From: a virus
Direction: 5' to 3' (one strand)
Length of the DNA: 64,000 nucleotides
Virus record (IMG/VR): IMGVR_UViG_3300025071_000006
Location: 33,208-97,207 of that record
Shown: piece by piece, positions 4,675-40,532 of the stretch
Numbering within the stretch: the first letter of the stretch is position 1
How the letters are laid out: every line of letters begins with the position of its first letter
Position numbers and translations under genes: made by a program
The notes under the pieces: model-generated
Told to the model about the DNA's origin: nothing
Databases searched by the model: none
The model's input: only the letters and a program-made list of their open reading frames with translations

Positions 4675-6696
4675 ATGAAGCTTCATAACATTACTCATAG
4701 TGAATGGTTTATTAACCAGAAGCGTATACCACCAAAAGACTCAGCAGATCACAAAGCCTTCTTTGATTTTCAAAAGGAACTATGTATGAACGGATGCATG
4801 ATGGATGGTGTATACATAAATCCATTTTTATATTGGCACTTAAATGTATGGCATACAGAAGTAGATACTATAGATGAGTATGGTAGGATAAATCAAAAGT
4901 ATGCAAACCCTCTACTAAGAGATAATGAGTGGTTAGTAACTAATGAGATAGACAGAGCACATAAAGAAAAGAAAGGACTAGTTATACTAGGAATTAGACG
5001 TTTTGCAAAGTCTGTTATAGAAGCTAGTTACATTGGTCACGGTGCAACCTTTGATGAGAACTCACAAAATATTATTGCAGGTTTGAATGCACCTGATATA
5101 AAACTAATTACAGATAAAATAGACAAAGGTCTAAACTTTCTTCCTAAAGAATGGAGATGGCAAAGAGTAGAAGACAATTGGAAAAACCAAGTCACCTTAG
5201 GTATAAAAACTAAAGGTGGAACAAGAATACCATTCTCACAGATTCTTATTCGTAACTTAGATGGAGGTAATAACGAAGAAGCTATTGCAGGTACAAAACC
5301 TAGAAGACTAATTATTGATGAGATAGGTAAAGGCAATTTCCTACGTGGACTACAAGCTGCAATACCAGGATTCACCACACCATTTGGGTGGGGTTGTTCT
5401 CCTATACTCACCGGTACAGGTGGGGACATGAAAATGTTTATGGATGCAAAAAGCTTAATGTTTGATGTAGATAATTTTAACTTTCTAACATATAACAATG
5501 CAAAGGACACTAAAAGAATCCACGGATTATTCATTTCACATAAGTATAGAATGGAAGCAAAAGAAGACTCCACATTGGGTTCTTTTTTGGGCAAGAAAAA
5601 AACATCCTCTCTGCACGAGATACCTATGTTAGTTTCGAATGAAGAGAAAGCTACCAAAATTACAAATGAAATATTAGAAAGATTAAAGAAGGCTGGTGAC
5701 AGAGTTGCTTTCTTAAAAGAAAAGATGTACTACCCTCAAGAGGTGGATGATATATTCTTAAATGAAGATACAAACATCTTTGATATAGAAGCTGCAAAGA
5801 GACAGAAGTATAGAATTAATGAACAAGAAAAAACAGGAGTTCCTGTAATTTTATATGATGATGGAGAAGGTGTAAAACATGACTTTACAGATAAGTTACC
5901 TATTACTAACTTTCCATTAAAACAAACAGATCTAAAAGATGCACCTGCTGTTATATATGAATTTCCTGTAGAAAATCCTCCATATGGCCTGTATGTTGCA
6001 GGAATTGATCCATATAGACAAGGTAAATCAGCATATAGTACGTCATTAGGTTCTATATACATATATAAACGTATGCATGCTATAGCTGGTGAGAAGTATC
6101 AAGATATGTTTGTTGCAAGCTATTGTGCACGTCCTGACAAGAAAGAAACATGGGATGAGCAAGCTAGATTACTAATTAAGTATTATAATGCTAGAGCGTT
6201 ATGTGAAAACGATGAGATATCTTTTATTGATTATATGATTAGTAAAGGAGATGCACATTACTTAGAAAGACAACCAGAATGGTTAAAAGAAATAGTACCA
6301 AACACTACAGTGAGACGTGACTATGGAATACACAGGTCTTCAGAAAAAGTAAGAGACTTTCTACACGGATGTCTTAAGAAATATACTGAAGATGTTATAC
6401 ATACCGAACTTGATGATGAGGGAGAAATAATCTCATCAGTTAAAGGTATGGCTAAAATATTAGATCCTGTACTACTAGAAGAGATGATACAATATAATGA
6501 GTCTGGTAACTTTGATAGAATTATTGCAGCTGAGTTAGCAATAGGACTAGCAATGAAGTTAGACCCAATGATGGGTAGAGTAGGAGATAAAGAAGATGCG
6601 AGACTAACGTCCCTCTTCAAAACAAATAAGAAAAACATTCTTTTTACAGAGTCAAGAAATCTCTTTGGAAGGAAGAAAAATAAACTTTTTTCATAA
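4675..6696 (+). CDS. terL: Terminase large subunit
   Basis: Walker A-like GIRRFAKS, Walker B LIIDEIG, coupling TGTGG, nuclease YVAGIDPY and C-terminal NFDRI; upstream of portal. Confidence 0.93.
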   Translation: MKLHNITHSEWFINQKRIPPKDSADHKAFFDFQKELCMNGCMMDGVYINPFLYWHLNVWHTEVDTIDEYGRINQKYANPLLRDNEWLVTNEIDRAHKEKKGLVILGIRRFAKSVIEASYIGHGATFDENSQNIIAGLNAPDIKLITDKIDKGLNFLPKEWRWQRVEDNWKNQVTLGIKTKGGTRIPFSQILIRNLDGGNNEEAIAGTKPRRLIIDEIGKGNFLRGLQAAIPGFTTPFGWGCSPILTGTGGDMKMFMDAKSLMFDVDNFNFLTYNNAKDTKRIHGLFISHKYRMEAKEDSTLGSFLGKKKTSSLHEIPMLVSNEEKATKITNEILERLKKAGDRVAFLKEKMYYPQEVDDIFLNEDTNIFDIEAAKRQKYRINEQEKTGVPVILYDDGEGVKHDFTDKLPITNFPLKQTDLKDAPAVIYEFPVENPPYGLYVAGIDPYRQGKSAYSTSLGSIYIYKRMHAIAGEKYQDMFVASYCARPDKKETWDEQARLLIKYYNARALCENDEISFIDYMISKGDAHYLERQPEWLKEIVPNTTVRRDYGIHRSSEKVRDFLHGCLKKYTEDVIHTELDDEGEIISSVKGMAKILDPVLLEEMIQYNESGNFDRIIAAELAIGLAMKLDPMMGRVGDKEDARLTSLFKTNKKNILFTESRNLFGRKKNKLFS

Positions 6697-9272
6697 TGGC
6701 AATTATAAGATACACAAATGATTCATCTATTAAGTACGCATACTTAAACATCTTTCCAGATCAGTTTAAAACTACAAAACAAAAGAAAGATGATAGTTGG
6801 ATTAAAAACACAATGGATTACTTTGCAAATCAATCATATGCAATGTATGTTAGAAATAGAGAAACGTTTGCAAAAAACTATGATTTAATGAAAGGGATTC
6901 TTCGTAGGGAGGATTTTTATCAAGAACCAGAAGTAAGAAGTTTTACTGATCAACTAGTAAGTGATATTGATCTTCCTGCTTATGTAAAGATGTATTCTAT
7001 TATAACAACTCCTGTTAATGAATTAGTAGGAGAGATATCTAAACGACCAGACTCTTTTAGAGTAAAAGCATTTGATGATGAAAGTCAAGCACAAGAATTA
7101 CAATTCAAAACAGACACACTTCAAAAATATGTAATATCAAAAGTTAAAGAACAGGTAGTAGCAAAAGTTGCTATGACTGGACAAGATATAAGTGAAGAGG
7201 ATATAGATAAAATAACATTTGAACAAGTTAAAGATCAATTAGATAGTTATACTTCAGTAGCAGAAAAATGGGCTAATCATGTCCTCACTGCACAGAAAGC
7301 AGATTTTAATATTAAAGAAAAGTCCGAAGAAGCATTTAGAGATCTTCTTATAACTGCTAGAGAGTTTTATCATATATATGAAGACAACTCTAAACTAGGT
7401 TATAACATTGAAGTTACAAATCCTAAAAATACATGGTTCTTAACTACACCAGATAAAAAATATACATCAGATCCTACAGGAAGAAAACAAGGATCTTATG
7501 CTGCAGGTACAGTACAGGTAATGGAACTATCAGAAATAATTGAAGCAGTTCCTGAATTAACTAAAGCTGAGATTGATCATTTAAGAACATCTTTACAAGA
7601 CTATGGATTAATCAATGCAAGAGAATCTAATTTAACTAATGGTGTTACACCTGGTATTGATTCTATTACATATGATACATATGATCCTTTAGTATTACAG
7701 ACTCGTATGATGATTGAGTCTGAAATGAAAGAGAATGATGATGGTCTAAGAGACTTTTTAGGACTAGCTAATAATGTATCTGCATTTGGATATAAGTATG
7801 TTGTAATACGTTCTTATTGGGTTTCTAAAAAGAAGATAGGTAAATTAATATACATGGATGAACTAGGAAATGAGCAATCAGTACTAGTAGATGAGAATTA
7901 TAAAAGTGGAATGATGCCTACAGAACAATCACTAGAGTGGGGTTGGATCAATCAATGGTATCAAGGAATTAAAATAGGTCCGGACATCTATCATGTTAAA
8001 CCTTATAAATTATTAGACTACTGTCCAATCATTGGTACAGTGTATGAGCAAAAGAATACCGAAGCAAAATCGTTAGTAGATTTAATGAAGCCTTTCCAGG
8101 TTATATATAATGTTTGTATGAATCAATTATATAAACTACTAGAGAAAGAAGTTGGTAAGGTTCAACTGATGTCACTAAGACATATCCCTGTTCCGAAAGA
8201 TGGAGATGCACAAGATGCTCTTGATGTATGGGAAATGGAAGCTCGTAATAGAGGTGTTGTATTTGTAGATGATAGTCCAGAGAACTTAAAAGCTCCAAGC
8301 TCATTTAATCAATTTACTGCATTAGATCTTACACGTACACAAGAAATACAATCAAGATATACACTAGCCCAACAAATGAAAATAGAGTGCTGGGAATTAA
8401 TAGGTATGTCTAAACAACGTATGGGTAATATAGCTGCATCAGAAACAGCCACAGGTACAAATACAGCAATGCAACAGAGTTACTCTCAAACAGAGCCTCT
8501 ATTTGTTGCACATGAGTATGTAATGGGTCAATTATACCAAGCAATTGTAGATGCTGCACTATATACAGAAAGTTCTAAACCACAATCTACTCTTTCATAT
8601 ATAACTAATGAAGGTGAATCTGCATTTGTACAAGTTAATGGTACTGATTTATCATTACGTGATATTCAAGTATTCTTAACTAATAGACCAGAAGACACTC
8701 AAATGTTTAATGAGCTTAGACAATTATCTCAAGCTGTTATTCAAAATGGTGGTACACTTTATGATATTATTGAATTATATAGTACTAAGTCTATGAGAGA
8801 AATGAAAAAGACTTTCAAGGATCTTAAAGATAGACAAGAACAGCAACAGCAACAACAGATGGAACTTCAACAGCAACAGCAGCAAGCTCAGCAACAACAA
8901 GCTCAAGCAGCATTAGAGCAAGCTAAGCAGATGGCAATGGAAGAACAGGTTAATGAAGATAGACAAAATGAACTAGATAGAGTTAATAAGAAAGAAGTTG
9001 CTCTTATTAATGCTATGGCTAAAGGTCCAGAAATAGTTGGAGCAGATTTAGACAATTCAGGATCACCTGATATAGTAGAGCTATCTAAATTAGAAGCTGA
9101 AACTAATAAAGCTAATAGAGATTACCAAGGTAAAATGGCAGAGATCCAAAGTAGAAATTCAATGGCTCAACAAAAACTACAATTAGAAAGAGATAAAATA
9201 AAATTAGCTCGTGAGAACCAAGCTAATGATCTAGCTGTAGCAAAACAAAATGCAAAAGGAAGAAATAAATAG
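6696..9272 (+). CDS. Portal protein
   Basis: 858 aa after terL; Gln-rich coiled-coil C-terminal barrel as in podovirus portals; crAss-like order terL-portal-scaffold-MCP. Confidence 0.85.
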   Translation: MAIIRYTNDSSIKYAYLNIFPDQFKTTKQKKDDSWIKNTMDYFANQSYAMYVRNRETFAKNYDLMKGILRREDFYQEPEVRSFTDQLVSDIDLPAYVKMYSIITTPVNELVGEISKRPDSFRVKAFDDESQAQELQFKTDTLQKYVISKVKEQVVAKVAMTGQDISEEDIDKITFEQVKDQLDSYTSVAEKWANHVLTAQKADFNIKEKSEEAFRDLLITAREFYHIYEDNSKLGYNIEVTNPKNTWFLTTPDKKYTSDPTGRKQGSYAAGTVQVMELSEIIEAVPELTKAEIDHLRTSLQDYGLINARESNLTNGVTPGIDSITYDTYDPLVLQTRMMIESEMKENDDGLRDFLGLANNVSAFGYKYVVIRSYWVSKKKIGKLIYMDELGNEQSVLVDENYKSGMMPTEQSLEWGWINQWYQGIKIGPDIYHVKPYKLLDYCPIIGTVYEQKNTEAKSLVDLMKPFQVIYNVCMNQLYKLLEKEVGKVQLMSLRHIPVPKDGDAQDALDVWEMEARNRGVVFVDDSPENLKAPSSFNQFTALDLTRTQEIQSRYTLAQQMKIECWELIGMSKQRMGNIAASETATGTNTAMQQSYSQTEPLFVAHEYVMGQLYQAIVDAALYTESSKPQSTLSYITNEGESAFVQVNGTDLSLRDIQVFLTNRPEDTQMFNELRQLSQAVIQNGGTLYDIIELYSTKSMREMKKTFKDLKDRQEQQQQQQMELQQQQQQAQQQQAQAALEQAKQMAMEEQVNEDRQNELDRVNKKEVALINAMAKGPEIVGADLDNSGSPDIVELSKLEAETNKANRDYQGKMAEIQSRNSMAQQKLQLERDKIKLARENQANDLAVAKQNAKGRNK

Positions 9273-10735: not shown

Positions 10736-12301
10736 ATGGCAATTCAAACAATCCCAGGTTTAACTGGCTTTACTTATGCACGTGTAGCGTCTATGGATGC
10801 ACGAGCTGTAGGTAAGCTGACAGATGCGAACCACCTAGAGTCCTTTCACTCTACTGAGCCTGCAGACTATGATAAAAAGATTATCAGTCTGTATACTCAA
10901 TCTTCATTGTATAGCAATGATTTTCTAGACATGATTAACAAGAGTACTCCTTATTACATTGACACAAACTCAGATGCGTGGAAGTGGAATATAGCTGTAC
11001 CTTACAAATTCCCTAAAATTATTGACATTCCAAAATCTACTAAAGATATCATTGCTGGTACTGGTAAGGTTGGAATTGATGGTCAAGAGTTTGAGCTTAT
11101 ATTAAGTTCTAACGAGTTCTCTAAGAACGCTATCATCTCTGTAGGAACACGTCAATATGGACCACGTTTTTACGTGATAAAAGATCCACAACCATGGAAC
11201 ATGGGATGGATTTACAAATTTACATTAGTAAGTGATAACCCAACAGTAGACTTCGTTAATACTACATTTTTAGCACAAGGTGTTGAATTAGAATTAGTAG
11301 ATGCTGCAATTGGAGAATTTGATCAAGACTTATTAGGTCTTCCTAGATTAGGTGAAGAAATCACTATGTTCGAATCATTAGGTTCTGCATATGGTTATGA
11401 GCACAAAATTACGGAATGGGCTGATGATAAAATGTTAAGAGACTCTTCTGGGAAACCATTAGATATTTTAGTATATGCACCACAACAACGTAATCAACTT
11501 CCTTTAAGAAGAGAAGACGTTAAATGGGAACCGTTCATTGAGTTCTGGATGCGTAAGTCTATGTTAGAATTAAAAGTTAAACGTATGATCTGGGCTTCTC
11601 CAGGTACGGTTAAAACTAATGGATCTAAACAAGAATTAAAAAGAACTTCTGCTGGTGTATACCACAGAATGAGAAATAATGGAAACTTAGTACAGTATAA
11701 CAGAGGTGAATTCTCTGCTAACTTAATACGTGCAGTTTTCGGTGATCTATTCTATCGTAGAGTGGATGTTAAAGATCGTAGAGTTAAAATGTATACTAAT
11801 GAGGCTGGATTCGATGTATTCCAACAAGCTCTTAAAGATGATGCACTTAATTCAGGTCTTACTTTCATGGCAGATTCTGGAAACAGATACATGCAAGGTG
11901 AAGGACAAAACATTACTTATAACTTTGCTTTCGATGCAATGGTTACGAGAGAAACAGGTCGTGTTGAATTGGTTCACTTAAAAGAACTAGATTTACCACA
12001 AACTAATTTAGAATTTGGACAAAACATGAAATCTACGCCAGTATTTATGGTGTTTGATGTTTCTCCATTATCTGATGGTGCAATGGTAAATAATATCCGT
12101 GAAGTTCGTATGCAAGGTGCTCCTTCTATGACTTGGGGTTATATTGATGGTACTCGTTCCCACTTAGGCTTTGCGAAGTCTCAAGGAATGCAGTCTGCTA
12201 ACAAATTCCCAGGATATGAGTTATGGATGAAAGATCGTTGTGATGTATTCATTGAAGACTTATCTAGAACTGTGTTAATTGAAGAAATTCCACAATTCTA
12301 A
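10736..12301 (+). CDS. Major capsid protein
   Basis: 521 aa, highly-expressed codon bias (many TTC/ATC/AAC), position; N-terminal KLTDANHL recalls the crAss-like MCP LTxxNHL motif. Confidence 0.85.
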   Translation: MAIQTIPGLTGFTYARVASMDARAVGKLTDANHLESFHSTEPADYDKKIISLYTQSSLYSNDFLDMINKSTPYYIDTNSDAWKWNIAVPYKFPKIIDIPKSTKDIIAGTGKVGIDGQEFELILSSNEFSKNAIISVGTRQYGPRFYVIKDPQPWNMGWIYKFTLVSDNPTVDFVNTTFLAQGVELELVDAAIGEFDQDLLGLPRLGEEITMFESLGSAYGYEHKITEWADDKMLRDSSGKPLDILVYAPQQRNQLPLRREDVKWEPFIEFWMRKSMLELKVKRMIWASPGTVKTNGSKQELKRTSAGVYHRMRNNGNLVQYNRGEFSANLIRAVFGDLFYRRVDVKDRRVKMYTNEAGFDVFQQALKDDALNSGLTFMADSGNRYMQGEGQNITYNFAFDAMVTRETGRVELVHLKELDLPQTNLEFGQNMKSTPVFMVFDVSPLSDGAMVNNIREVRMQGAPSMTWGYIDGTRSHLGFAKSQGMQSANKFPGYELWMKDRCDVFIEDLSRTVLIEEIPQF

Positions 12302-28308: not shown

Positions 28309-31300
28309 ATGGCTACTAGAAAAGAAATGGATGACTCTGCTTCAGGCTTAACTGCAGCTAAGAAGAAAGCTGCAGAAGCTAAGAAGATGGAATCTGCTCA
28401 GAAAGGTCAAGTGAGAATGGAGTTTAATCAAGCTCAGTCTGGACTTAATATGGACAGTACAATTAACCAGGTGAAAACAGGGAACCTTACCTATGCTTTA
28501 AATGCAACGGTTGAGAACTTTGATTCTAGTTCTATTAATTATCAAAATGAACCTGGTAATGAGCCTTGTCTTAGTTTTCCTGATGGTTATGAACTTATAG
28601 GAAAGCATACTATTCCTGAGAAAAAGAAAAACATATTCTTTTTAGTAAACCCTTTAACTGGTGGAAGTGAAATTGGCTTCATGTTTAATAATGATTGTCA
28701 GTATCGCACGCTAATCAATGCTCCATGTTTAAACTTTAGTGTTGATCACCCTATACCAAAGGTAGTACATAAAATAACAAACTGTACCACAGAGATATAT
28801 TGGACTGATGGATTTAATGCTAGAAGATATTTAAATGTAGAAACAGACGAGAACTTAGAACCAATTGGTCTTCCTTATACATTAATTTCTGGAAGTCCTA
28901 ATTGTGATCCTGTATATAGTGATATATTAGACTGTAATCAACTAAAGATACAGCCTAACTTTGACATACCTTTTTTAGATGTTAATGAAGTAACTAATGT
29001 AGGATCATTAGAAGCTGGAATGTATCAGTTTGCTATTCAATACTCTGATGCTACAGGTAATGATTTAACATCTTATTATTCAGTAACCAACCCTTGTCCT
29101 ATTGCTGATCCTCTTATAACAACAGTAAACTTTAACTATCCAGTAGGTAAATCTATTATAGTAAAAGTATCTAATTTAGATATATCAGGACAATTTAATT
29201 ACTTCAACTTAGCAGTAATTAAAACTATAAATAATATTACTTCAGTAGAACTAGTAGGTGTTTATAACATTACAGAAACTACAGAAGATATAACCTATAC
29301 AGGAGCAGATCAGACAGCTATAAGATTATCAATAAATGATATATTTGAAAAGTATCCTTATTATGATATTGCTAAAGATTTAACATCAGTTCAAGATGTA
29401 TTAGTATGGGATAATTTAACATCTATAGATAGAATCAACTATCAACAGATTGCTAATGATATAACCTTACAATGGGAAACTCATAGATTACCTGCTGATG
29501 AAAATTATGCTGATGAAGAGAATGCTACAAACTTACGTGGATATATGCGTGATGAAGTGTATGCTTTTGAAATAGTATTTCTTCTTAAGAATGGAAAACA
29601 AACAGATTCTTTTCATATCCCAGGTCCTAACAATCTTAATGTACAACCTGACATACCCAACACTAATGATGATTTTATAGGTGAGCCAGATTACTTTCAA
29701 AACGGTATAGGATATAGTCCATATTGGAAGATATATAACAATGCTATAAATCTAGGTTTCTCACCTGGCTATCTTTCTACTGAAAGCTACAAAGGACCTT
29801 ATGAGTTTGGAGAGTTTGCATACTGGGAGTCTACTGAAAAGTATCCTTGTAATAAAGATGTATGGGGTAATTTAGCAGATCAACCTATTAGACATCATAA
29901 ATTTCCAGATGTATTAATTAGTCCCATTATAGAAAGTCCTGTTATTACTTATGACGGAAACAATATGGTTCCTGTTATGCAAGATAGTAATCCAGTATTC
30001 CCTATGGGAGTAAAGATTAATGACAATCAAATTTCAAACTTAATATTAACTTCTGATTTAACACAAGATCAAAAAGATGATATTGTAGGATTTAAAATAG
30101 TTAGAGGAGATCGTGGTACAAATCGTTCAATTATAGCTAAAGGTATACTTAGAAATGTAAACTCTTATATAAGACAAGATCAAGAGTACTACTATCCTAA
30201 CTATCCATACAATCAAATTTCTGGAGAAGACTCATTTCTACAAGAGAATAACAATGCTTGGAATTATAAATCTAAAGCATGGCTTGTATATATGCCAGAT
30301 TCTGCATCAACTGCTCTTCCAGGAGTAGATCTTAACATAGTAGTAAATAGTGAGGATGGTGTATTTTCATATACCAGTGTCACTAATGGAAGACCTACAG
30401 AGGCAGTTATTAAACCTAATTGTATTATAGAAGTATGTTCTATTACAAGACCTGTAGCTCTTAAAGGAGTAATGACTATAGGTCCTGGAGATTATGATAT
30501 ATGGAAATGCTTTCATGATAGTGGTGCATATTGTGGTTGGAGATCAGTAACTCAAAATCCTTTTAATAATATAAACTTTGATGGAACTCTTGTTGGAAAA
30601 AAATGGTGGGCTGCATATTTCTTACCATTTCTTACTGATAAAACAGGTACTGTAATAACTGATTTTGATCCTGACTTTGATTATGATGGTCAATTTAATG
30701 AAGATGCTGGAGGTCATGCTTTTAGACCAGGTATTGAAACTAAACAGTGTGTATCAATTAATGGAAGTAATGGTCGTAGACCTATGTTAAAACTAGCACC
30801 TCTTGGTAATAATGGAGTTTGTGTAAATGAAGATGGAACTAATGCTGCTAATGGTAATTATTCTCCAGGTTGTTTTTCAAACCAATGTACTGAAGGTCCT
30901 AATGGAGAGGCATGTCAATGTTGTATTGATACAGTTAATGGTGAACCCTCTGGTTTTGGAGAACCTACTAATCCTCTTCCTGCAGTAGTACCTAATCCTG
31001 ATGATTCGACAAATACTTTTACTCCTCAAACAGCTTTGGAAGATGGTGGAAGTGCTTCTCTTAGTGGTACAAATAGTCGTCAAGGAAGAAGGTCTTGTTT
31101 AAATTGTGATAAAGATACACCTATTACACCTTTGGATGGTCCTGATGCTGAAAGAGCAAAAGATATTTTAGATAAATTAATATTTAATTCTCCTGACACA
31201 TCCTTTGGGCAGCCATTTTTAGGTGGTGTACTAAAATTAGAAAGTGTCATGGCTGGAGCTGGGAAGGCTCATTTTGTAGAAGTTAAAGACAACGCTAAGT

Positions 31301-34300
31301 ATAAACTTCTAACTAAAGAGGCTCAACAAGATGCTTTAGATAGTTCAGAAAGAGTAGCTAACATGGGAGCTGAATGGAATGCTGGTGTAATGTTTACAGT
31401 ATACCAATCCTATCTTACTATATACATAAATGGTATAACAAGAAAGAACTATGCAATGTCTTTCAACTCAAGAGCAAATTATGATTATTCTTTTCCTATT
31501 GACAATAATGTTAGCAGTGGTATCAAACAAAGAGAGATAGAGCTTGCAAGGTATTTAATACCAGGAGTTCAATCATTTAATAATAATGATGCCCCTATAA
31601 ATAACTGGAATAGAGAATCATCAGTATATATTAAAACTAAAACTAATGACAATTTATTAGCATTACCTATTCCACAAGATACAAATAGTTTAGCGGCTTC
31701 AGATGGAACTTCTAGTATGGTAGAGTATTCAAGATTTGCTATAGGAGATAGTGGTGCTTGTAGTACTCCTGAAAGAGAACAAGACATAAAGGTGGTTTCC
31801 TATTATGCTTCTATGAAAAATATTATACCTAATCAGTGGGGTCAAATAAATTCATTTAAAAGAATAGATACAGGATATCAAAAACTATTAAATTCATCTG
31901 ATAGTGATACTATATTTGGTGGTGATGTATTTATATCTAGATTTACATTTAAAACTAAACTACCATTCTTTATAGATAATAGAGTAGAAGCACCTGATGA
32001 TTCAGACATATTCTTTGATGAGTTAGGTAATGTAGCTTATCCTAAATATTGGCATTCTGCTAGATCTATACTGAGTAATTACACAGTAACTAAAGGTGAG
32101 GATGCTCCTCAAAATATGTTTAACCTTATTTCTACTAAGGCTAATAATTTTGATTGTCCTAGCGATCCTTCTTTATATGATGCAAATACAGATAATCCTA
32201 TTGCAGGTACATACAGAACATTTTATAATGGTTACATGTATTTATGGGCTTATGGTGTTCCTAACTTCTATTGTGAAAGTGTATATAATACAGATTTAAG
32301 ACAGGCTTTTAATACTAAAGAAGGAGACTTTTGGCCTCATGTAAGTAGTGGTATTCCAGACGAGTGGTTTCAAGAAGTAAATGTTCCAATTGCTCAAGAT
32401 AATACTTATTACTATAATGTAACTTACTCTAAACAAAACAAAGAGAATTCATTTAGTCAACTTCCTCCAGATTGGAGAGAGGAATTATGTTTTACATTTT
32501 TCCCATTTAGAGCAATTTACTCTGACTCACAATCAGATACTCCTGATAATAGAGTAAACAATTGGCTAGTGTATAGGGCTCTTAATTTATTTGACTTTCC
32601 ACAAAACTATGGTGATCTTATATCATTAGATGGTATTCAAGATAAGGCAGTATTAGCACGATTTGAAAACAAAGCTTTATTATATAATAAGCTTTTAACT
32701 ATTGACACTAGTAATCCACAAGCAGCTTACATAGGTAATCCTAAAATGTTTTCTAGTTCTCCTCCGATAGATTTTGCAGAAACAGATCTTGGGTATGTAG
32801 GATCTCAACACAAGTTTTTACTTAAACTACCATACGGTCAGATTACTGCAGATGCAAAAAGAGGACAGTTATTTCTTATTAGTGGAAATAAAGCTGTAGA
32901 TATAACAGGATTTGGATCAGGAGTAAACAGATTTATGACAAACAGTTTACCTTTTGAGATATTAGAATACTTCCCAGAAGTAAACATAGATAATAACTTT
33001 ACAGGATTTGGACTACACGGAGTATATGATAGTAAGTTTGATAGAATTATTATTACAAAACTAGATTATATTCCTATAAACTCTTTGATTTATTTTGATA
33101 TAGTTACACAAAACTTTTATCTGCCATCTTTATTAAATAATGGAATAGATCAACAAATATTCTTAAGTGATACGAAATACTTTTGTAATAAGTCTTGGAC
33201 TATGTCATTTGATTTTAGTACAAAAAGCTGGATATCGTTTCATAGTTATTTACCAAACTTTTATATAGGAGAAAATAACTTCTACTATTCAGGAATTAAT
33301 GGATGCTGTACAAACTTTACTGCTATTCTTGATACTCCAGATAGAAGTAGAATTGATAAAGAAGAACCTAATTTGGAAATGATGGTAGGAGTACTAGATG
33401 CAGTTGTTCTTATAACAACAAGTACAACAACTACTACTTCTCCTTTATTTACAACTACCACTACAATATATACACCGGATTGTAATTTTAATATATCATT
33501 AACAGAAGAGTTGAGTTGTGATATAGATGGTGTAGGATACATAACAGTACCTACTCCTACTACTACAACTTTGTGTGTAAGACCTACTCCTTTAACTACT
33601 TCAACCTTTGTAGAAGGATATCAAATAAAAGGTACAACTTCACCAGTAGTAGGAACAGCTACTGCACAAGAAGCATGTAGTGTAGCTGCATTTTCATTTA
33701 ATGATACAAGTACAGAAATTGTACCTATCACTTTTAATTATCAATATCGTGTACTAGATAATTCTACTAGTATACTTAACTCTCAAGTCTATTTAGGAAT
33801 AAGTCAAGACTGTACTATAGTTCCTGATGGTTGGTATAGTGTTCAATATGAGACTGGAACAGTATTCTATGTAGAAAATGGATTTGTAAAAATAGAACAA
33901 CCATGTAATTGTAATACTCTTACAACTACTACAACTGTATATGCAGGAGCATTTGATCAATGTTGCACATGGTTAATGAATGATGACAATGGAACTGTTA
34001 ATATATATAAAGAAAATATACCAGATATGAATGGTATTCCAGTTACAATTCCTAACTATACTTCTGGTAAGTTAGCAATTGGACCGAGTACTTTATATGG
34101 AGTTTCACCAGGTTTTAATACTACATTTAAGAAATGGAAGATTACAACAAACCCATGGACTGTAGAGGTAGCTTCAGATTTAACAATAGCTGATAATTCC
34201 TTTGGTACAACGGCTGGGATAGTAGTTAAAGATGACAATACACTAATTGCAATAGATACATCTCAAGGATATATAGTAGAAATAGACGCATCAACTGGAA

Positions 34301-34959
34301 TCCCTTCACAGAAAATTCTAGTGGGAGGTAATTATACATACTCAACTAACTTATTATATACTAAAACAGGTAAATTAATAACAATAGGAAAAAATACTGC
34401 GTCAGGAAACTTTCATTATTTCCAGTGGGATTATGATAATGAAGTTGCAAATCCAGAAATAAATACTGAGATAATTAATTCAGAATTTGTAAGTTGTAGA
34501 GCGATTATGTCATGTGATTGTGAGATCACTATTGTGGCAGAAGGTTCTACTTGTGAGAATTATTTATTCCAAGTAGAAACAGCCTCTCCTTTTAGAGTGG
34601 TAGGAATAGGATGTTTAGACTATGTAGCAAACCCACCTACCTTAGATGATGTCACACCTATATGGAGTAAACTTAATATTACAAATGTAACTCAGCAAGC
34701 ATCTTGTGTTACTAAAGGCACAGATCAATTTGGAACAACAACTACTACAACCACTGCACCTGCAACTACTACTACCACAACATCAATATATCCATGTTAC
34801 GGATATGAAGTAGTAGGACCTCAAGTAGTGTGGTATCCTAACTGTGTAGGAGATGATCAATCAATATCTGTACCTACAGGAGAAACTTTACAGTTCTGTT
34901 CTTCAGATAATACTATAACTGGTACAGGTATAACTTTATTAGGAGCATGTCCTTTATAA
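28309..34959 (+). CDS. Tail stabilization/muzzle protein with insertions and Thr-linked C-terminal extension, 2216 aa
   Basis: IYWTDGFNARRY, YQFAIQY, GYMRDEVYAF, IFGGDVFISRF, WISFHSYLPNFY patterns as recalled for crAss-like stabilization proteins; position. Confidence 0.75.
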   Translation: MATRKEMDDSASGLTAAKKKAAEAKKMESAQKGQVRMEFNQAQSGLNMDSTINQVKTGNLTYALNATVENFDSSSINYQNEPGNEPCLSFPDGYELIGKHTIPEKKKNIFFLVNPLTGGSEIGFMFNNDCQYRTLINAPCLNFSVDHPIPKVVHKITNCTTEIYWTDGFNARRYLNVETDENLEPIGLPYTLISGSPNCDPVYSDILDCNQLKIQPNFDIPFLDVNEVTNVGSLEAGMYQFAIQYSDATGNDLTSYYSVTNPCPIADPLITTVNFNYPVGKSIIVKVSNLDISGQFNYFNLAVIKTINNITSVELVGVYNITETTEDITYTGADQTAIRLSINDIFEKYPYYDIAKDLTSVQDVLVWDNLTSIDRINYQQIANDITLQWETHRLPADENYADEENATNLRGYMRDEVYAFEIVFLLKNGKQTDSFHIPGPNNLNVQPDIPNTNDDFIGEPDYFQNGIGYSPYWKIYNNAINLGFSPGYLSTESYKGPYEFGEFAYWESTEKYPCNKDVWGNLADQPIRHHKFPDVLISPIIESPVITYDGNNMVPVMQDSNPVFPMGVKINDNQISNLILTSDLTQDQKDDIVGFKIVRGDRGTNRSIIAKGILRNVNSYIRQDQEYYYPNYPYNQISGEDSFLQENNNAWNYKSKAWLVYMPDSASTALPGVDLNIVVNSEDGVFSYTSVTNGRPTEAVIKPNCIIEVCSITRPVALKGVMTIGPGDYDIWKCFHDSGAYCGWRSVTQNPFNNINFDGTLVGKKWWAAYFLPFLTDKTGTVITDFDPDFDYDGQFNEDAGGHAFRPGIETKQCVSINGSNGRRPMLKLAPLGNNGVCVNEDGTNAANGNYSPGCFSNQCTEGPNGEACQCCIDTVNGEPSGFGEPTNPLPAVVPNPDDSTNTFTPQTALEDGGSASLSGTNSRQGRRSCLNCDKDTPITPLDGPDAERAKDILDKLIFNSPDTSFGQPFLGGVLKLESVMAGAGKAHFVEVKDNAKYKLLTKEAQQDALDSSERVANMGAEWNAGVMFTVYQSYLTIYINGITRKNYAMSFNSRANYDYSFPIDNNVSSGIKQREIELARYLIPGVQSFNNNDAPINNWNRESSVYIKTKTNDNLLALPIPQDTNSLAASDGTSSMVEYSRFAIGDSGACSTPEREQDIKVVSYYASMKNIIPNQWGQINSFKRIDTGYQKLLNSSDSDTIFGGDVFISRFTFKTKLPFFIDNRVEAPDDSDIFFDELGNVAYPKYWHSARSILSNYTVTKGEDAPQNMFNLISTKANNFDCPSDPSLYDANTDNPIAGTYRTFYNGYMYLWAYGVPNFYCESVYNTDLRQAFNTKEGDFWPHVSSGIPDEWFQEVNVPIAQDNTYYYNVTYSKQNKENSFSQLPPDWREELCFTFFPFRAIYSDSQSDTPDNRVNNWLVYRALNLFDFPQNYGDLISLDGIQDKAVLARFENKALLYNKLLTIDTSNPQAAYIGNPKMFSSSPPIDFAETDLGYVGSQHKFLLKLPYGQITADAKRGQLFLISGNKAVDITGFGSGVNRFMTNSLPFEILEYFPEVNIDNNFTGFGLHGVYDSKFDRIIITKLDYIPINSLIYFDIVTQNFYLPSLLNNGIDQQIFLSDTKYFCNKSWTMSFDFSTKSWISFHSYLPNFYIGENNFYYSGINGCCTNFTAILDTPDRSRIDKEEPNLEMMVGVLDAVVLITTSTTTTTSPLFTTTTTIYTPDCNFNISLTEELSCDIDGVGYITVPTPTTTTLCVRPTPLTTSTFVEGYQIKGTTSPVVGTATAQEACSVAAFSFNDTSTEIVPITFNYQYRVLDNSTSILNSQVYLGISQDCTIVPDGWYSVQYETGTVFYVENGFVKIEQPCNCNTLTTTTTVYAGAFDQCCTWLMNDDNGTVNIYKENIPDMNGIPVTIPNYTSGKLAIGPSTLYGVSPGFNTTFKKWKITTNPWTVEVASDLTIADNSFGTTAGIVVKDDNTLIAIDTSQGYIVEIDASTGIPSQKILVGGNYTYSTNLLYTKTGKLITIGKNTASGNFHYFQWDYDNEVANPEINTEIINSEFVSCRAIMSCDCEITIVAEGSTCENYLFQVETASPFRVVGIGCLDYVANPPTLDDVTPIWSKLNITNVTQQASCVTKGTDQFGTTTTTTTAPATTTTTTSIYPCYGYEVVGPQVVWYPNCVGDDQSISVPTGETLQFCSSDNTITGTGITLLGACPL

Positions 34960-34965
34960 TTAACT

Positions 34966-35835
34966 ATGGCAACAAAAATAATAAATTTAAAAATAACGAG
35001 CTCTAGTCCTAATGTAGGACCTTTTGATGTCATTACTGATAACGGAGTTACTGTGGGAACTAATGTTTCACTAAGTGATTTTATTTCTGGTATAAGTTAT
35101 ATAGTAGATTCATCTGTAGAAGTGGTAACAATTAAGTCTAATGGTAATTGTGAATTTACAAAGAATTTTAGTGTTAAAAATATACCTAATCAAACATATA
35201 TAAATGCTAAATATACTCCAACAAGAACTGGATGTTTATGGACTCATTTAAGAAATGATACTTTATATAATTATTACTATGGAGATATAGCTCCTTATAT
35301 AATTGAGTATCCTTTTGCATATAAATATTACGATGAGATACTACAGAATGTAAAAGATTATAGTAAAGTGTATGTATACCTACCTTCTACGTTAGGATCA
35401 TTTGATTCTAATAGTAAGGTGCAAGTTGATGATAAGTATTTTAATAAAGCTGTTCTTTATAATGGTCAGCAATCTACAGGTATAATAGAACTTGTGCCTA
35501 AACCTATGAATGACTTAAGTTCATACTTACAGTATCCTATATTAAATAGTGACAGTAAGACTATTACATATGCAAAGACAGATAGTTTTTATCAATACAA
35601 TACTTTCTGGGCACTACAGAAAGATGATCAAGTACCTTTGTTTAAGACATCATGTGAATCGAAATCAATAGATAAAGTAGTTAATCAGGACAACATGAAT
35701 TATGGTGACCTATCATTTAAGAAGTCACAACTAAGAGCTAAGAATTTAAAGGTGAGACACATATTAGATAACTCTTCTATAACACATATAGTAAGTCAGT
35801 TTATTGTAACACCAGCACAAATATCATATCATTAA
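34966..35835 (+). CDS. GPF module fused to a muzzle-C-terminus-like domain, 289 aa
   Basis: N-terminal VGPFDV module, then LWTH...YNYYYG..PYIIE...FNKAVLYNGQQSTG. Confidence 0.6.
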   Translation: MATKIINLKITSSSPNVGPFDVITDNGVTVGTNVSLSDFISGISYIVDSSVEVVTIKSNGNCEFTKNFSVKNIPNQTYINAKYTPTRTGCLWTHLRNDTLYNYYYGDIAPYIIEYPFAYKYYDEILQNVKDYSKVYVYLPSTLGSFDSNSKVQVDDKYFNKAVLYNGQQSTGIIELVPKPMNDLSSYLQYPILNSDSKTITYAKTDSFYQYNTFWALQKDDQVPLFKTSCESKSIDKVVNQDNMNYGDLSFKKSQLRAKNLKVRHILDNSSITHIVSQFIVTPAQISYH

Positions 35836-38800
35836 TGGCACTAACACCAGGTAAAGCAAAAAAGATGTTAAGCGATGGAACTGTCCATGGTCAATCTTTG
35901 TCAGATAAACAGAAGAGATACTTCGGTGCTATAGCTGGAGGGGCAACACCTATGAAAGCAATCAATGGTGGTTGGTTAGATAAGTATGCAATGGGAGGAA
36001 GTCTTCCAGGTGCATCAGGTATGATGTATTCACGTAACTCTGGTTCTTCTGCAATGTCTCCTCCTAACCTTACTAAAGCTCAATATGGTGACAAGTATAC
36101 AATAGTACCAGAAGATGGTATACAGTTAGATGAGGTTGTTATAACTGGAAGGTCAAACGAGAGAAAAAAGAAAGATGAAATAAGAGAGGAGTTATTTAAG
36201 GATATGCCTGATTATTTAAGATATGGAGATGATGATCGTGTTCTTTCATTGGAACAACAACAACAACTTAAAGATCTAGGTATTACAGACGTAGCTAGTT
36301 ACAATGAATATTTTGGAACATCTTATAGTAAGGACAATGCAGGAAATGAGTTTAATTATTTAAACTCCTATAAGCCTGAACGTGAAGAGTTGATTAGGAG
36401 AATTCATGGTGCTACTAACACAGCAGCAAAAAACGTTGCTCTGTTTGCATCCTTAATACCTAGTCCAATAAGTGGTGCTAGTTTATTGTCCAGAACACCA
36501 CAAGCATATAAAGCTCTTGCTGGTCCTGTTAGACAAGCTTACAACTTTACTGCTAATAGTCCTGTTGGAAAAGCTGCTTTTAAGTATATAGGAGAACCCT
36601 TTAAAAGGTTTACGAACTATAAACCAGGAGGTGGACCATTTAGTATAGGGAACTATGCTGATGCTGCTAGTGTAGGTTATGGTGGTTATAACATTGCTCC
36701 AGATGTAAAAGAACTATATAATAATCCTAGTTGGTCTGCTGCAGGAAATGTAGGTTTAGATGCTTTATCACTTACTCCTTTATTAAATAAAAGGTTTACT
36801 GATGCAGTCCTTCCAAAGAGGGTCAGAAATATTACTAAGTACTATACAAAACCTTTAGGAGATGCTTATAAAATAGGGATGGATAATCCTGATATACCAA
36901 CCTTTCTTACTAGAGGTAAGACTCCACCAAACCCACTTATAGGTAATTCTAAGATAGATGCAGATCGTTTTATGCAAATATATACAAATCCTAAGAATTC
37001 AGCTTTTATGTCTAGATTTGATGATCAGATAATGAAGCCTTTTCCTGGTGGAACGATGAATGAAAATTATCTTAGAGTTCAGACAAGAGAACTAAATGTG
37101 TTACAACAAGAATTAGATGAATTCATAAAAACTCCAGGTGCTCATGTTCTTCCTAAAGCCAAAGCTTTACAAAAGTCAATTACTCAATTAGAAAATAACA
37201 TTAATGGTTTTTGGAAAACGCAATATCCTACTATAGCAAGAAAGAACATGGAAGCAATACAGGCTGGTACGTTTAAGACTACCTTCAGTAGTGCAGATCT
37301 TGGTCCTGGAGTAGGAGGGACATACTGGCCTCCTACTGCTAATCAACCCCTGAACACTTGGAAATATATGTTTCCAAATCAACCAAACACAGTGGGTATA
37401 GGTAACAATAGTGCTGTTAAGCTAAGAGAAGTGCCTGTAGGAGCTACTGAAGCTGTTAAAAATGCAGAAAGAACAAAGGAAATGCTAACTGGTATACATG
37501 AAACCCTTGGTCATGCTAGTAATGCAGGAGGATATGCTTTAACTAAACAAACTAATGATTTAATTAGAGGTGCACTTAAACCCAATCCCAAAATAAAAGA
37601 CGGAACGTCTGAGTGGGTTCAAAAGTTTTTTAAGGATCCTAAAGCAACTTTTAAAGACTGGACAAAATATTTACAAGATGAGACAGAGATGGTTGCAAGG
37701 GTGATGGAGCTTAGAAGACAATACATTGACCCAAAATACTGGGGAACTGGTAAACAATATGATATACCAGATAAGTTAATTGACAGAATATTTAGAGATG
37801 GACTCTCTGGTAAGAGTAAAATACATGCAGACTTTTTTAGAGTGATAGATAAAAAAGGACTTCAGAAATTAATGAAGGGATTATATGCCACTATACCAAT
37901 GGCTATAGGAGCTGATGGATTATTAGAATATAAACATGGTGGTAATGTACCTAAAGCTCAAGGTGGTATTCTGAGAAACAACCTGGAGAAAGAATCTGTC
38001 AAAGGAATAGGTCAAAAGGTTGCTGATATAGCAAGTTCTATGGAAGCTAATGAAGAAGATGGAGGAAGACCGCCTTTAAGTATACCAGATTATGCCAGGG
38101 CATTTTTTGATAAAGAAGGTTTGTGTAGAGATAATACATGTGTTCAAACAGTAAAAGATTTTTATAGTAAAGTTGGTGTAAAGGCTATGCCTGACGATGT
38201 TTATGATAATAGAACGTTTTTAGAGAACTTTAAAGAGTATGGGTTTGAAGAAATATTAGATCAGAAAAATCTTCAACCAGGAGATGTGTTACAATACTAC
38301 TATGGTCCGGATGGTGAAGATGTAAAAGAAGACCCATCATATTTAAACTTTCCATATCACATGGGTGTTTATGTAAATCCTGGAGAGTATATTGGAGATG
38401 GTGATAGTGAAGCTCCTATTCAAAGAAAAAATATGTATACATATGGAGATGGTGACAAGAAGGATCCATTCAGAGCATTTAGGTATATTAAAGAAAACAA
38501 AAATGGTGGGTGGTTAGATAAGTTTCAAGAAGGTGGTGTGATAGAAGATGACAGAGGGCAATGGGCACACCCAGGAAAAATAACTAAAATCAACTCCAAC
38601 AAAATAACAATGAAGGGTGTTAACTACCCTGTACTTGGAATATCTGATACTGGTGACAAGAAGATGATGCAACCAGGTAAAGATTACAAGTTTGGTGGTA
38701 ACTCTGTAACAGAGTATCCAATGGCTCAAGAAGGACTTAAACTTAAAAAAGCAACACCAAGTTTTCCATATATAAACAGAGTGCCTGACACTTCACCTCA

Positions 38801-40532
38801 AGTAGAGTTTTTAAAGAACTGGACAAATTCTCCAAGAGGTCAAGAATTATTAAGTAATAGTTTTGATGGAGATGAAAAAGATATAGAGAGAGTAACTAAT
38901 AAAAGAATAAACAATTTAGATAATATTGATATTAGTATGGATGATCATGCTAGTGATTTCTTAGGTAGATATAATCGTAACAGGCATGACATTAAATTAA
39001 ACTCTAGTCTTCTAGATACATCAGAACCTAAACTAATAGGTAATCAAGATGAAGATGTAATACTTCATGAACTCTCACACGCTCAAGACTTTTCACCAGG
39101 TGCTGAGTTTAACAGATTAACTATGCCATTTAGTGATCAAAAGCTCATTAAAAACTATAGAAAGAAAGCTCTTAAAGAGACAAAGAATCTAGATGTGGAG
39201 AGAAAGACTAAGAAGGATATTAAGAATAGAGTTAACTATATAGGTGACCCAACAGAAACTAGAGCAAGACTTAATTCTATTAGATATTTCTATGAAACTA
39301 GTCCAATTGGAAAAGAGGAAGGAATGCCTAGTATCATGGATTCAGAGGTAACTCCTGAGATGATGGAAGTAATGAAAGACAATGCTCAGTTTAAAGAATT
39401 AAGAGAAGTATATGATGATGATGAGATACTAGAACTTTTAAATACTGTATCAGATAACAGTAAGTCCTCTGGTCCTTCTAATATGGCATATGCACAAGAA
39501 GGTGATAACATACCTCTTAAAACAGTTAATGAGTTTGGTGAATTAAAAAGTCTGACTTATCCAAGTAGTGTGTTCCAAACTAATGAAGGTGAGCCTCAAC
39601 AATTGGTTATGTTAGATCCAGCAGTTGTTACTGCAAAAGGTCCTATAACATCAGCTAAAGAACAAATGGAAAAGTATGGAATAACCAATGAATTAGCAAA
39701 AGGTTATGTACCTAATCTATCTGAAAGAGCATTAAACAATATAATCCCTCAAGATTATGGAGACATAACAAAAAATCTTGATAGATACAGAAGATTTAAG
39801 GGAAATCTAGGACGTCCTGAAGACGCTTTGTGGTATGACGACCCAAAAAGTGATAATCCAAGAAAATATACTATACCTAACCGAGAAGATGCATTTAGAC
39901 TATATCTAGGAATGCCACAAGTTAATAATAGTTTTTCTGTAAGTAATCACAGACCTGGTGATTCAGAAGATAAAAGTATGGTTTATTTAAAACCTACTTA
40001 TTTTAAAAATCCAGAAATTAGACAAGAATTACTAGATAATTATTTTAGTCTCCTTGATACTAGGCTTTTTAACGGTAAAAGAGGAAGAGGTAATGAAAGA
40101 TCATTATCAAGAGGAGAATATGAAGGGGATGGTAAACCATGGCCTACTGCAGATAACGCTTTAGGAGATTTTACATTTGATATGGGAGAGGATGAAAATG
40201 GAAGCTATATATCTATATATGATATATGGGACTTGAACCCATTCAATACCACAGGCGAAGGATCGTCTATAAATAGAACTGGTAAAGCATTACTAAAGCT
40301 TTTTAATACAAAAAGTGGTAAGAACGCTACTGAAAATTCAGAAGTGTCCGAAATATTTGGAGCAGGAAAACCATTTGAAATATATGAAAGAATATATTTT
40401 GACCCAAAAACTAAGAAAATACTAGATATGAAACAGATGAAACAGGGAGGATCCTTGGAGAAGAAGGCTCAATTTACTAACTTTACAAATTATAACACCC
40501 CACAACCAGTAGGCTGGTTAGATAAATACTAA
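35835..40532 (+). CDS. Multidomain ejected cargo protein (two zincin-like domains, NlpC/P60-like domain), 1565 aa
   Basis: HETLGH (37497), C769/H842 NlpC/P60 pattern, HELSH (39066); repeated GWLDK(Y/F) and AQxG/xxGG motifs. Confidence 0.7.
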   Translation: MALTPGKAKKMLSDGTVHGQSLSDKQKRYFGAIAGGATPMKAINGGWLDKYAMGGSLPGASGMMYSRNSGSSAMSPPNLTKAQYGDKYTIVPEDGIQLDEVVITGRSNERKKKDEIREELFKDMPDYLRYGDDDRVLSLEQQQQLKDLGITDVASYNEYFGTSYSKDNAGNEFNYLNSYKPEREELIRRIHGATNTAAKNVALFASLIPSPISGASLLSRTPQAYKALAGPVRQAYNFTANSPVGKAAFKYIGEPFKRFTNYKPGGGPFSIGNYADAASVGYGGYNIAPDVKELYNNPSWSAAGNVGLDALSLTPLLNKRFTDAVLPKRVRNITKYYTKPLGDAYKIGMDNPDIPTFLTRGKTPPNPLIGNSKIDADRFMQIYTNPKNSAFMSRFDDQIMKPFPGGTMNENYLRVQTRELNVLQQELDEFIKTPGAHVLPKAKALQKSITQLENNINGFWKTQYPTIARKNMEAIQAGTFKTTFSSADLGPGVGGTYWPPTANQPLNTWKYMFPNQPNTVGIGNNSAVKLREVPVGATEAVKNAERTKEMLTGIHETLGHASNAGGYALTKQTNDLIRGALKPNPKIKDGTSEWVQKFFKDPKATFKDWTKYLQDETEMVARVMELRRQYIDPKYWGTGKQYDIPDKLIDRIFRDGLSGKSKIHADFFRVIDKKGLQKLMKGLYATIPMAIGADGLLEYKHGGNVPKAQGGILRNNLEKESVKGIGQKVADIASSMEANEEDGGRPPLSIPDYARAFFDKEGLCRDNTCVQTVKDFYSKVGVKAMPDDVYDNRTFLENFKEYGFEEILDQKNLQPGDVLQYYYGPDGEDVKEDPSYLNFPYHMGVYVNPGEYIGDGDSEAPIQRKNMYTYGDGDKKDPFRAFRYIKENKNGGWLDKFQEGGVIEDDRGQWAHPGKITKINSNKITMKGVNYPVLGISDTGDKKMMQPGKDYKFGGNSVTEYPMAQEGLKLKKATPSFPYINRVPDTSPQVEFLKNWTNSPRGQELLSNSFDGDEKDIERVTNKRINNLDNIDISMDDHASDFLGRYNRNRHDIKLNSSLLDTSEPKLIGNQDEDVILHELSHAQDFSPGAEFNRLTMPFSDQKLIKNYRKKALKETKNLDVERKTKKDIKNRVNYIGDPTETRARLNSIRYFYETSPIGKEEGMPSIMDSEVTPEMMEVMKDNAQFKELREVYDDDEILELLNTVSDNSKSSGPSNMAYAQEGDNIPLKTVNEFGELKSLTYPSSVFQTNEGEPQQLVMLDPAVVTAKGPITSAKEQMEKYGITNELAKGYVPNLSERALNNIIPQDYGDITKNLDRYRRFKGNLGRPEDALWYDDPKSDNPRKYTIPNREDAFRLYLGMPQVNNSFSVSNHRPGDSEDKSMVYLKPTYFKNPEIRQELLDNYFSLLDTRLFNGKRGRGNERSLSRGEYEGDGKPWPTADNALGDFTFDMGEDENGSYISIYDIWDLNPFNTTGEGSSINRTGKALLKLFNTKSGKNATENSEVSEIFGAGKPFEIYERIYFDPKTKKILDMKQMKQGGSLEKKAQFTNFTNYNTPQPVGWLDKY

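Follow-up and report, generated by a model that had tools for sequence, protein, structure and literature searches.

Group B colicins (B, D, Ia and M) and the pyocins S2 and S5 carry TonB boxes in disordered N-terminal translocation domains. Podoviruses have ejection proteins (gp14-16 in T7 and gp7/16/20 in P22), and T7 gp16 has peptidoglycan-hydrolase content. Polyvalent proteins of phages and conjugative elements were reportedly described by Iyer et al. in 2017. In B. thetaiotaomicron, the consensus of the SusC TonB box is DEVVV(V/T/I), and its deletion abolishes SusC function (PMC10350073). In phage crAss001, the genes that follow the muzzle gene (gp45 and gp46) encode virion cargo proteins; the N-terminus of gp45 lies inside the tail, and this protein is thought to exit the virion from N to C, partly unfolded (PMC10172136). 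Here we describe a TonB-box-like motif, LDEVVITG, in the cargo protein candidate P0001, whose gene lies in a stretch of 64,000 nucleotides (the window; positions 33,208 to 97,207 of the IMG/VR virus record IMGVR_UViG_3300025071_000006). We propose that the motif is a TonB-box mimic in a cargo protein of a marine crAss-like phage, a reading whose chances we judge to be about evenly balanced.

The gene and the motif are located in the window as follows:

35835..40532, + strand: P0001, a polyvalent cargo (ejection) protein candidate of 1565 aa, from the ORF (open reading frame) translation

36126..36149, + strand: TonB-box-like motif LDEVVITG, aa 98-105, preceded by Q97 at 36123-36125

The translation of 35835-40532 agreed with the initial annotation, made from the DNA letters, in placing QLDEVVITG at aa 97-105 (nt 36123-36149). 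For comparison with the host box, an eight-column log-odds matrix was made from 30 TonB boxes of Plug-domain genes of three marine Flavobacteriaceae genomes (Formosa, Maribacter and Lutibacter), in which 151 Plug domains were located and the upstream residues of 30 were read. The residues preceding the host Plug domain were (S/A)-L-D/E-E-V/I-V-V-(V/I/T)-G/A, followed by Y-G-T or T-R. LDEVVITG scored 23.9 bits on this matrix of the inferred host group, the 30 host boxes themselves scoring 14.4-27.8, and it was the only sequence with at least 14 bits in the six-frame ORFs of the window (22,229 residues). It also fits the published DEVVV(V/T/I) consensus (PMC10350073), and when columns were compared, phage and host alike had L, D/E, E, V/I, V, V/I, T/V/I and a small residue. 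Back-translated to DNA, the ten-residue SusC form matched at least 120 stretches of the species genomes collected; the 80 matches listed were all titled Bacteroidota, except for one 'Bifidobacteriaceae' bin and one 'uncultured bacterium'. The LDEVVV-type TonB box of Bacteroidota, which the initial annotation had taken as known, was borne out by the 30 Flavobacteriaceae genes and by PMC10350073. Its description of the motif as specifically 'SusC-type' was too narrow, as G/A and the next residues suit generic Bacteroidota transporters equally. At the level of sequence, the motif cannot be told apart from the TonB box that the host phylum uses.

Conservation was followed in 119 homologues of P0001 (164,138 residues), which held 70 sites of at least 14 bits in 62 proteins. 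An enrichment over composition-matched background, whose absence would have counted against the idea in the initial annotation, was thus found, since 20 composition-preserving shuffles of the family gave a mean of 0.55 such sites and a maximum of 2. Unrelated IMG/VR phage ORFs (222,615 residues) contained 3 sites of at least 14 bits (1.3 per 100,000) and none of at least 18, so that the motif was 33-fold enriched in the family over real phage ORFs. The family sites formed at least eight groups with dissimilar upstream 10-12 residues, and they were spread from about aa 80 to past aa 1700. Among 54 distinct 15-mers, L was invariant and D, E, V and V were each 87-94% conserved, with I or V at position 6 in 81%, T at position 7 in 50% and S, A or G at position 8 in 94%; the pattern of the family is that of the host TonB box. 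Across ten aligned N-termini, the L, E, V, V and T of the motif did not vary.

The codons of the motif varied synonymously between contexts (GAG/GAA; GTT/GTA/GTG). Therefore, the constraint acts on the peptide and not on the DNA. On the same grounds, a recombination junction conserved as DNA was rejected. In 17 syntenic IMG/VR loci, the ORF at the position of P0001 carried the motif in 12, and the muzzle, the ORF of about 290 aa and the following cargo ORFs of these loci had no motif, except for the downstream half of a split gene in one locus (L004). As far as these comparisons of sequences go, it is a selectively maintained short linear motif.

Further downstream in P0001, the initial annotation had pointed to a weaker second copy:

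39612..39635, + strand: degenerate second copy LDPAVVTA, aa 1260-1267, 10.7 bits

39492..39503, + strand: AQEG before the second site, aa 1220-1223, 37 residues upstream, from a regular-expression scan

The copy is indeed weaker, its score being below that of every one of the 30 host boxes. At the homologous position, seven relatives (P0002, P0004, P0010, P0015, P0018, P0021 and P0029) had a motif of 18-25 bits within the same flanks. By this comparison LDPAVVTA is a decayed copy of a strong site, in which positions 3 and 4 are Pro and Ala, and the second site is probably non-functional in this phage. The proline substitutions L8P in BtuB and I9P in FhuA inactivate TonB boxes. The FhuA I9P substitution is also cited in PMC9586334.

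The surroundings of the first site comprise the following elements:

35835..35987, + strand: conserved N-terminal leader, aa 1-51, ending in GGWLDKY and nearly invariant in the N-terminal alignment

35988..36122, + strand: Gly/Ser/Pro/Met-rich linker, aa 52-96, which contains AQYG

36078-36089, + strand: AQYG, aa 82-85, 13 residues upstream of LDEVVITG

36150..36173, + strand: basic run after the motif, aa 106-113, with five K/R in eight residues

36078-36089, 37956-37967, 38724-38735 and 39492-39503: the AQxG sites in P0001

The same order was seen in the alignment of ten N-termini, namely a 51-residue leader with GGWLDK[YF], a Gly/Ser/Pro/Met-rich stretch, K-A-Q-x-G, a spacer of 3-14 residues, and the motif with its basic run. 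The presence of AQxG shortly upstream of each site (AQYG by 13 residues and AQEG by 37), as noticed in the initial annotation, turned out to be a rule of the whole family, in which 91% of the motif sites lay at most 80 aa downstream of an AQxG, compared to 21% of random positions; the distance was usually 7-57 residues. The family contained 414 AQxG sites, where its composition predicts 38.5 (10.7-fold). The eight residues after the motif averaged 2.1 K/R, compared to 1.0 at random positions, and basic residues also come after the SusC boxes of the host. In the AlphaFold2 (AF2) model, residues 1-36 were helical, with a pLDDT of 69-80.

GGWLDK[YF] was present three times in P0001 (35964-35987, 38502-38525 and 40512-40529; aa 44-51, 890-897 and 1560-1565), the last copy being the very C-terminal residues. 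Nearly all of the 119 homologues had an N-terminal copy (at about aa 47), an internal copy and one at the extreme C-terminus. This sequence may be a module-end, cleavage or docking tag, and a literature search did not find the string WLDKY in a biological sense. Small host transporters (L151, L153 and L156) have A-Q as the last residues of the signal peptide, and the TonB box comes soon after it. If AQxG were a cleavage site, its pairing with the motif may, speculatively, imitate the N-terminus of a mature transporter. A module ending in P-M-A-Q-x-G (P0001 aa ~901-967, window 38535-38735) recurred in an unrelated virion protein of 1101 aa with a PG_binding_1 domain (L290:2-3304, - strand), where the exact 8-mer was found at most 10 residues after the module; in P0001, no motif follows the module at aa ~901-967.

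A possible interaction with TonB was assessed by complex prediction, which had been suggested as a check. The last 118 residues of the best TonB_C gene of Formosa sp. PL04 (241 aa), aligned with 29 Flavobacteriaceae orthologues (30 rows), were used as the TonB partner, and P0001 aa 66-135, aligned with ten homologous segments, as the phage partner. The median ipSAE was 0.57 (0.52, 0.59 and 0.57), the best of 3 controls reached 0.00, the pLDDT of the partners was at least 52 and the runs shared at least 90% of contacts. In the calibration of the predictor, 58 of 80 solved complexes attained the mark for a pass, as did 2 of 110 mismatched pairs, and the range up to 0.60 held 7 of the 80 solved complexes and both passing mismatches. 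Thus, the controls were passed (0.57 against 0.00), but the outcome amounted to 'weak support' only. A partner of TonB_C type in the phage itself was also looked for, and no TonB_C domain was matched in the 115-kb genome; a phage-encoded TonB-like partner was rejected on this basis.

The exact 8-mer (with G or A as last residue) was then searched for in IMG/VR as a degenerate DNA pattern, with reversed and scrambled peptides of the same degeneracy as controls. At least 114 stretches were obtained for the motif and 20 for each control, a number that may itself be a lower bound. The 117 real matches listed corresponded to 70 distinct contexts, comprising 5 transporters, recognised by a custom Plug HMM (hidden Markov model) built from the host loci, 2 members of the P0001 family, 8 short ORFs and 55 others. 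Among these 55 other contexts of the matches listed, 31 were in ORFs of at least 600 aa; the reversed control had 16 contexts in ORFs of at least 150 aa and 4 in ORFs of at least 600 aa. The other proteins among the matches listed included two tape-measure proteins, one virion protein with a peptidoglycan-binding domain and several unannotated proteins of 1100-2300 aa, and annotation of the other motif-bearing giants of IMG/VR mostly gave no match. In these other proteins the 8-mer was often located in Pro/Thr-, Gln- or acid-rich linkers, sometimes twice, and was then followed by Lys/Arg runs. The loci with the 8-mer spanned 29-70% GC. Therefore, the motif is not confined to phages of Bacteroidota.

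Several of these loci deserve individual description. The two tape-measure proteins (L240:1934-5317, - strand, phrog_25337, and L283:2-2989, + strand, phrog_32115), on contigs of 51% and 58% GC, have the 8-mer within a polar linker that leads into a stretch rich in Lys and Arg. Two exact 8-mers, 60-120 residues apart, are present in unannotated phage proteins of about 1000 aa and 53% GC (L291:9563-12490, + strand, and also L302 and L311), each after a Pro/Thr-rich linker, with a third, weaker copy upstream. Small proteins of 286-291 aa (L235:727-1584, + strand, L232:4229-5101, + strand, and several identical copies) begin with a signal peptide whose last residues are A-Q, and the 8-mer follows after about 20 residues; they gave no Plug match and, from their sequence, could be phage-borne TonB-interacting outer-membrane or periplasmic proteins. 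Finally, a SusC-like transporter of 995 aa that matches the custom Plug HMM was found in L245:2288-5272 (+ strand) and at least 8 near-identical loci (L260, L275, L278, L279, L298-L300, L314 and L316), on IMG/VR contigs of 40-57 kb; its gene is either carried by phages or belongs to host DNA within proviral calls.

The enrichment in IMG/VR is a lead and not a demonstration. A wider reading of it would make TonB capture a widespread, as yet undescribed step of entry in many unrelated phages of Gram-negative hosts, in which copies of the TonB box in disordered linkers of the first-out proteins (crass-like cargo, siphovirus tape-measure proteins and other giants) would let TonB-ExbBD pull these proteins, perhaps with the leading DNA end, through outer membrane and periplasm, and AQxG cleavage in the P0001 family would leave the box near a new N-terminus, as it is in mature transporters; this we consider unlikely. 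Among crassviruses, the 'tail lysozyme' of csAssE-Sib had one weak site of 15.3 bits. A general crassvirus feature was rejected, as the motif was lacking from crAss001 gp44-gp50 and from five cultured relatives. On present sequence comparisons, it is a trait of the marine P0001 clade and of scattered others, not of crassviruses generally.

The window is part of a virus record of 115,478 bp with a GC content of 33%, and three structural genes mark its structural module:

28309..34959, + strand: muzzle protein gene, 2216 aa, Pfam PF25731 crAss_MUZ (1e-31) and phrog_37948 (1.3e-105)

10736-12301: major capsid gene, Crass_capsid PF23898 (9e-31)

6696-9272: portal gene, P22-like

The position of the muzzle gene sets the synteny, as cargo genes come after the muzzle. 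On its 3' side, ORFs of 289, 1565, 1302, 894, 4219 and >1373 aa follow, all on the + strand, and P0001 (1565 aa) is the second of them, a post-muzzle placement in a crassvirus structural module. The gene order around P0001 was kept across the 17 related IMG/VR loci. The host is probably a member of Flavobacteriia, because Crassvirales infect Bacteroidota, the GC content is low and the muzzle matches mostly phages of Cellulophaga and Flavobacterium; in cultured phages, 36 of the 38 records matching the muzzle N-terminus infect these two genera. The best of these cultured-phage matches was Leptolyngbya phage Lbo-JY46 (L211, PP438436.1; 32% identity, 6e-48), whose recorded host is a cyanobacterium, a surprise for a muzzle of this type, and which had no TonB-box-like motif in the region scanned. 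Neither P0001 nor its region had a match by tblastn and megablast against 50,697 phage records, and no relative was found when 185,579 species genomes were scanned. Therefore, the host cannot be read from any assembly.

The 119 homologues of P0001 come from metagenomes, several of them from marine data such as Tara, and none is named. Their similarity is mosaic or modular, with 2-80% of the query matched, and PF18760, PF01464 or PF00069 domains are present in some of them. The whole protein had no significant Pfam (E up to 0.01), PHROG or PDB-sequence family, and aa 1-135 and 130-710 matched no Pfam family even at E up to 5. There was no homology to crAss001 gp45 or gp46 by PHROG, by Pfam or by tblastn against the 50,697 phage records. 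No Plug domain, barrel, carboxypeptidase-regulatory-like domain or signal peptide was found beside the motif, and no hydrophobic signal peptide was visible at the N-terminus. P0001 was ruled out as a SusC/RagA or other TonB-dependent transporter, as it is without Plug, 22-strand barrel and signal peptide. Two enzyme-like domains are candidates in its second half:

38139..38438, + strand: NlpC/P60-like (peptidoglycan endopeptidase) domain candidate, aa 769-868, PF00877 with E=0.013, below threshold

38913..39083, + strand: SprT-like zincin (HExxH) domain candidate, aa 1027-1083, PF10263 with E=0.0011, below threshold

The Cys and His of the NlpC/P60-like candidate were invariant in the alignment of homologues; Foldseek on its model (pLDDT 50) gave Tae3, MepS and NlpC as top rows, all with E of at least 0.076 and not significant. 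Beyond the basic run, window 36400-36830 (aa ~190-330) encodes Gly/Ala/Ser-rich hydrophobic stretches that are conserved in the family and were modelled as long helices of low confidence. These stretches could be a membrane-inserting part, comparable to the predicted transmembrane helix of crAss001 gp45.

If the motif is a TonB-box mimic, the muzzle would open and release the cargo protein with its N-terminus in front, the order that has been proposed for crAss001 gp45, and the motif would arrive in the periplasm. There it would add a beta-strand to the TonB C-terminal domain of the host, and TonB-ExbBD, driven by the proton-motive force, would pull on the cargo chain or tether it. The pull would help a largely unfolded protein of 1565 aa, together with its candidate peptidoglycan-hydrolase-like and zincin-like domains, to cross the outer membrane. 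Force-assisted extraction or tethering would be the most likely use, because of the analogy with group B colicins and pyocins. The proposal of the initial annotation that cargo engages host TonB was thus sustained in part: the motif is real and conserved, lies in predicted coil and belongs to a protein at a cargo position, whereas the complex prediction was weakly supportive. The setting, with the motif near the N-terminus in predicted coil and tied to AQxG, the gene placed after the muzzle and no TonB_C domain encoded by the phage, suits a docking epitope.

Several observations weigh against TonB-box mimicry. As TonB boxes are degenerate beta-strand peptides, a match in sequence is necessary and not sufficient, and some matches in IMG/VR are plainly ordinary strands, for example in an insertion of a tail sheath. 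In the commonest context of the family, the LDEVV core belongs to a module of about 60 aa that is itself conserved; positions 7-8 there depart from the host pattern and the scores are 11-16 bits, so that in this context the core could be an ordinary structural strand. No motif was found in crAss001 gp44-gp50, where the best score was 9.0, or, apart from the csAssE-Sib site, in the 41-kb structural regions of Cellulophaga phi17:2, Flavobacterium FpV4, Fpv1, Lbo-JY46 and csAssE-Sib. By its synteny with crAss001, P0001 is a candidate for a packaged and ejected protein. The pass in complex prediction may reflect likeness to solved complexes of TonB with TonB boxes and not binding by P0001, because such complexes are in the PDB, and the TonB used was that of Formosa, taken from the probable host group and not necessarily the one that the phage would meet. 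Residues 37-114, with the motif inside, were coil of pLDDT <50 in the AF2 model, from a shallow alignment of only 10 rows; this low confidence is consistent with disorder and no proof of it.

The motif might instead have a role inside the phage, as a strand that docks the cargo to the muzzle, tail barrel, portal or scaffold, or as a maturation-cleavage signal together with AQxG and GGWLDK[YF], with its likeness to TonB boxes a coincidence; this is possible, with the chances on balance against it. It does travel with AQxG, both 10.7-fold in excess and upstream of 91% of the sites, and with the GGWLDK[YF] found in nearly all homologues, its commonest context is the conserved ~60-aa module in which positions 7-8 differ from the host pattern, and close cultured relatives do without it. 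Segments of crAss001 gp45 have moreover been seen bound to the portal and the tail barrel, although those that were resolved are helical or a compact domain and not an added strand (PMC10172136). Nothing would lead a phage-internal element to agree over 6-8 positions, at 23.9 bits, with the TonB box that the host phylum uses, when none of the sites in the control residues (222,615) reached 18. Furthermore, the 8-mer is over-represented in unrelated virion proteins, tape-measure proteins included, of phages with 51-58% GC that share no structural proteins with crassviruses, and this recurrence makes a host partner common to Gram-negatives simpler than a phage-specific partner.

The same evidence of sequence and fold that favours TonB-assisted entry would also suit a decoy, in which the delivered protein would titrate or jam TonB and so stop nutrient uptake or block superinfection by TonB-dependent phages or bacteriocins, and TonB-box peptides are known to inhibit TonB-dependent transport (PMC9841981). 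However, a protein delivered by the virion acts at entry only, and an N-terminal, first-out placement suits import better than inhibition. The copies of cargo protein per virion, about 6-12 in crAss001, are few compared to cellular TonB. In E. coli, TonB is present in hundreds per cell. We consider a decoy improbable; the suggestion of the initial annotation that TonB is jammed for superinfection exclusion is likewise unlikely with about a dozen copies per virion, a number inferred from crAss001. Least probable of all, and by our estimate very improbable, is a relic of host DNA, that is, a captured fragment of a TonB-dependent transporter gene persisting without function. IMG/VR contigs do carry transporter genes (5 contexts, with 15 ORFs matching Plug), but no Plug, barrel, carboxypeptidase-regulatory-like domain or signal peptide adjoins the motif in P0001, the flanks are non-homologous among contexts while 6-8 residues stay fixed, codons vary synonymously, and the enrichment over real phage ORFs is 33-fold. 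A relic would not be expected to keep these residues unchanged amid replaced flanks and drifting codons. A small remaining share of the probability is assigned to none of these readings.

Short-tailed phages have to bring megadaltons of protein, followed by DNA, through the Gram-negative envelope. This is usually attributed to capsid pressure, and we know of no host motor implicated for ejection proteins. If TonB-box mimicry is true, it would provide a concrete energy source and a docking site for cargo entry, the import trick of colicins and pyocins would extend to viruses, and tonB/exbBD status and membrane potential would govern the sensitivity to abundant marine Bacteroidota phages; the enrichment in IMG/VR suggests a reach beyond the P0001 clade. 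The literature search gave no account of a TonB box in a virion protein of a phage, in agreement with the initial annotation, which had known of none for ejection proteins. The two tape-measure papers that mention the TonB box concern FhuA and T5 pb5/Llp, and in those on crAss-like phages TonB-dependent transporters figure solely as surface proteins subject to phase variation.

Among known systems, the Bacteroidota transporters (SusC/RagA and generic TonB-dependent transporters) have the same eight-position profile, L-D/E-E-V-V-V/I-x-G/A, with a flexible segment before the box and often basic residues after it. Unlike them, P0001 is without signal peptide, N-terminal extension, Plug and barrel, position 7 of the motif is mostly Thr whereas SusC prefers Val or Ile, and the carrier is a candidate for a virion-associated polyvalent protein. 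Crass-type cargo proteins are like P0001 in other respects: crAss001 gp45 (C1) is also encoded after the muzzle, is large and, as predicted for P0001, partly disordered, and presumably exits N-terminus first and acts at the envelope. However, the two proteins have no detectable sequence similarity, and gp45 and the other crAss001 cargo proteins are without a TonB-box-like motif. With T7 gp16, P0001 shares peptidoglycan-hydrolase-like content, which in P0001 is a sub-threshold domain match. Polyvalent proteins may be of the same kind, as giant virion-delivered proteins that string together variable enzyme modules; some homologues of P0001 carry PF18760, PF01464 or PF00069. To our knowledge, TonB-box-like, AQxG and GGWLDK[YF] punctuation has not been described for polyvalent proteins. 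As in the colicins and pyocins, a foreign protein that crosses the outer membrane would bear the TonB box of its host, copied into an N-terminal region without fixed structure, and capture by TonB with force-driven import is proposed here. In contrast to those soluble bacteriocins, which thread through a bound transporter, the P0001 candidate would be extruded from a phage tail and has 1565 aa with several candidate enzyme-like domains. TonB-box mimicry is thus known from bacteriocins, and what is new here is its candidate carrier, a protein associated with a phage virion.

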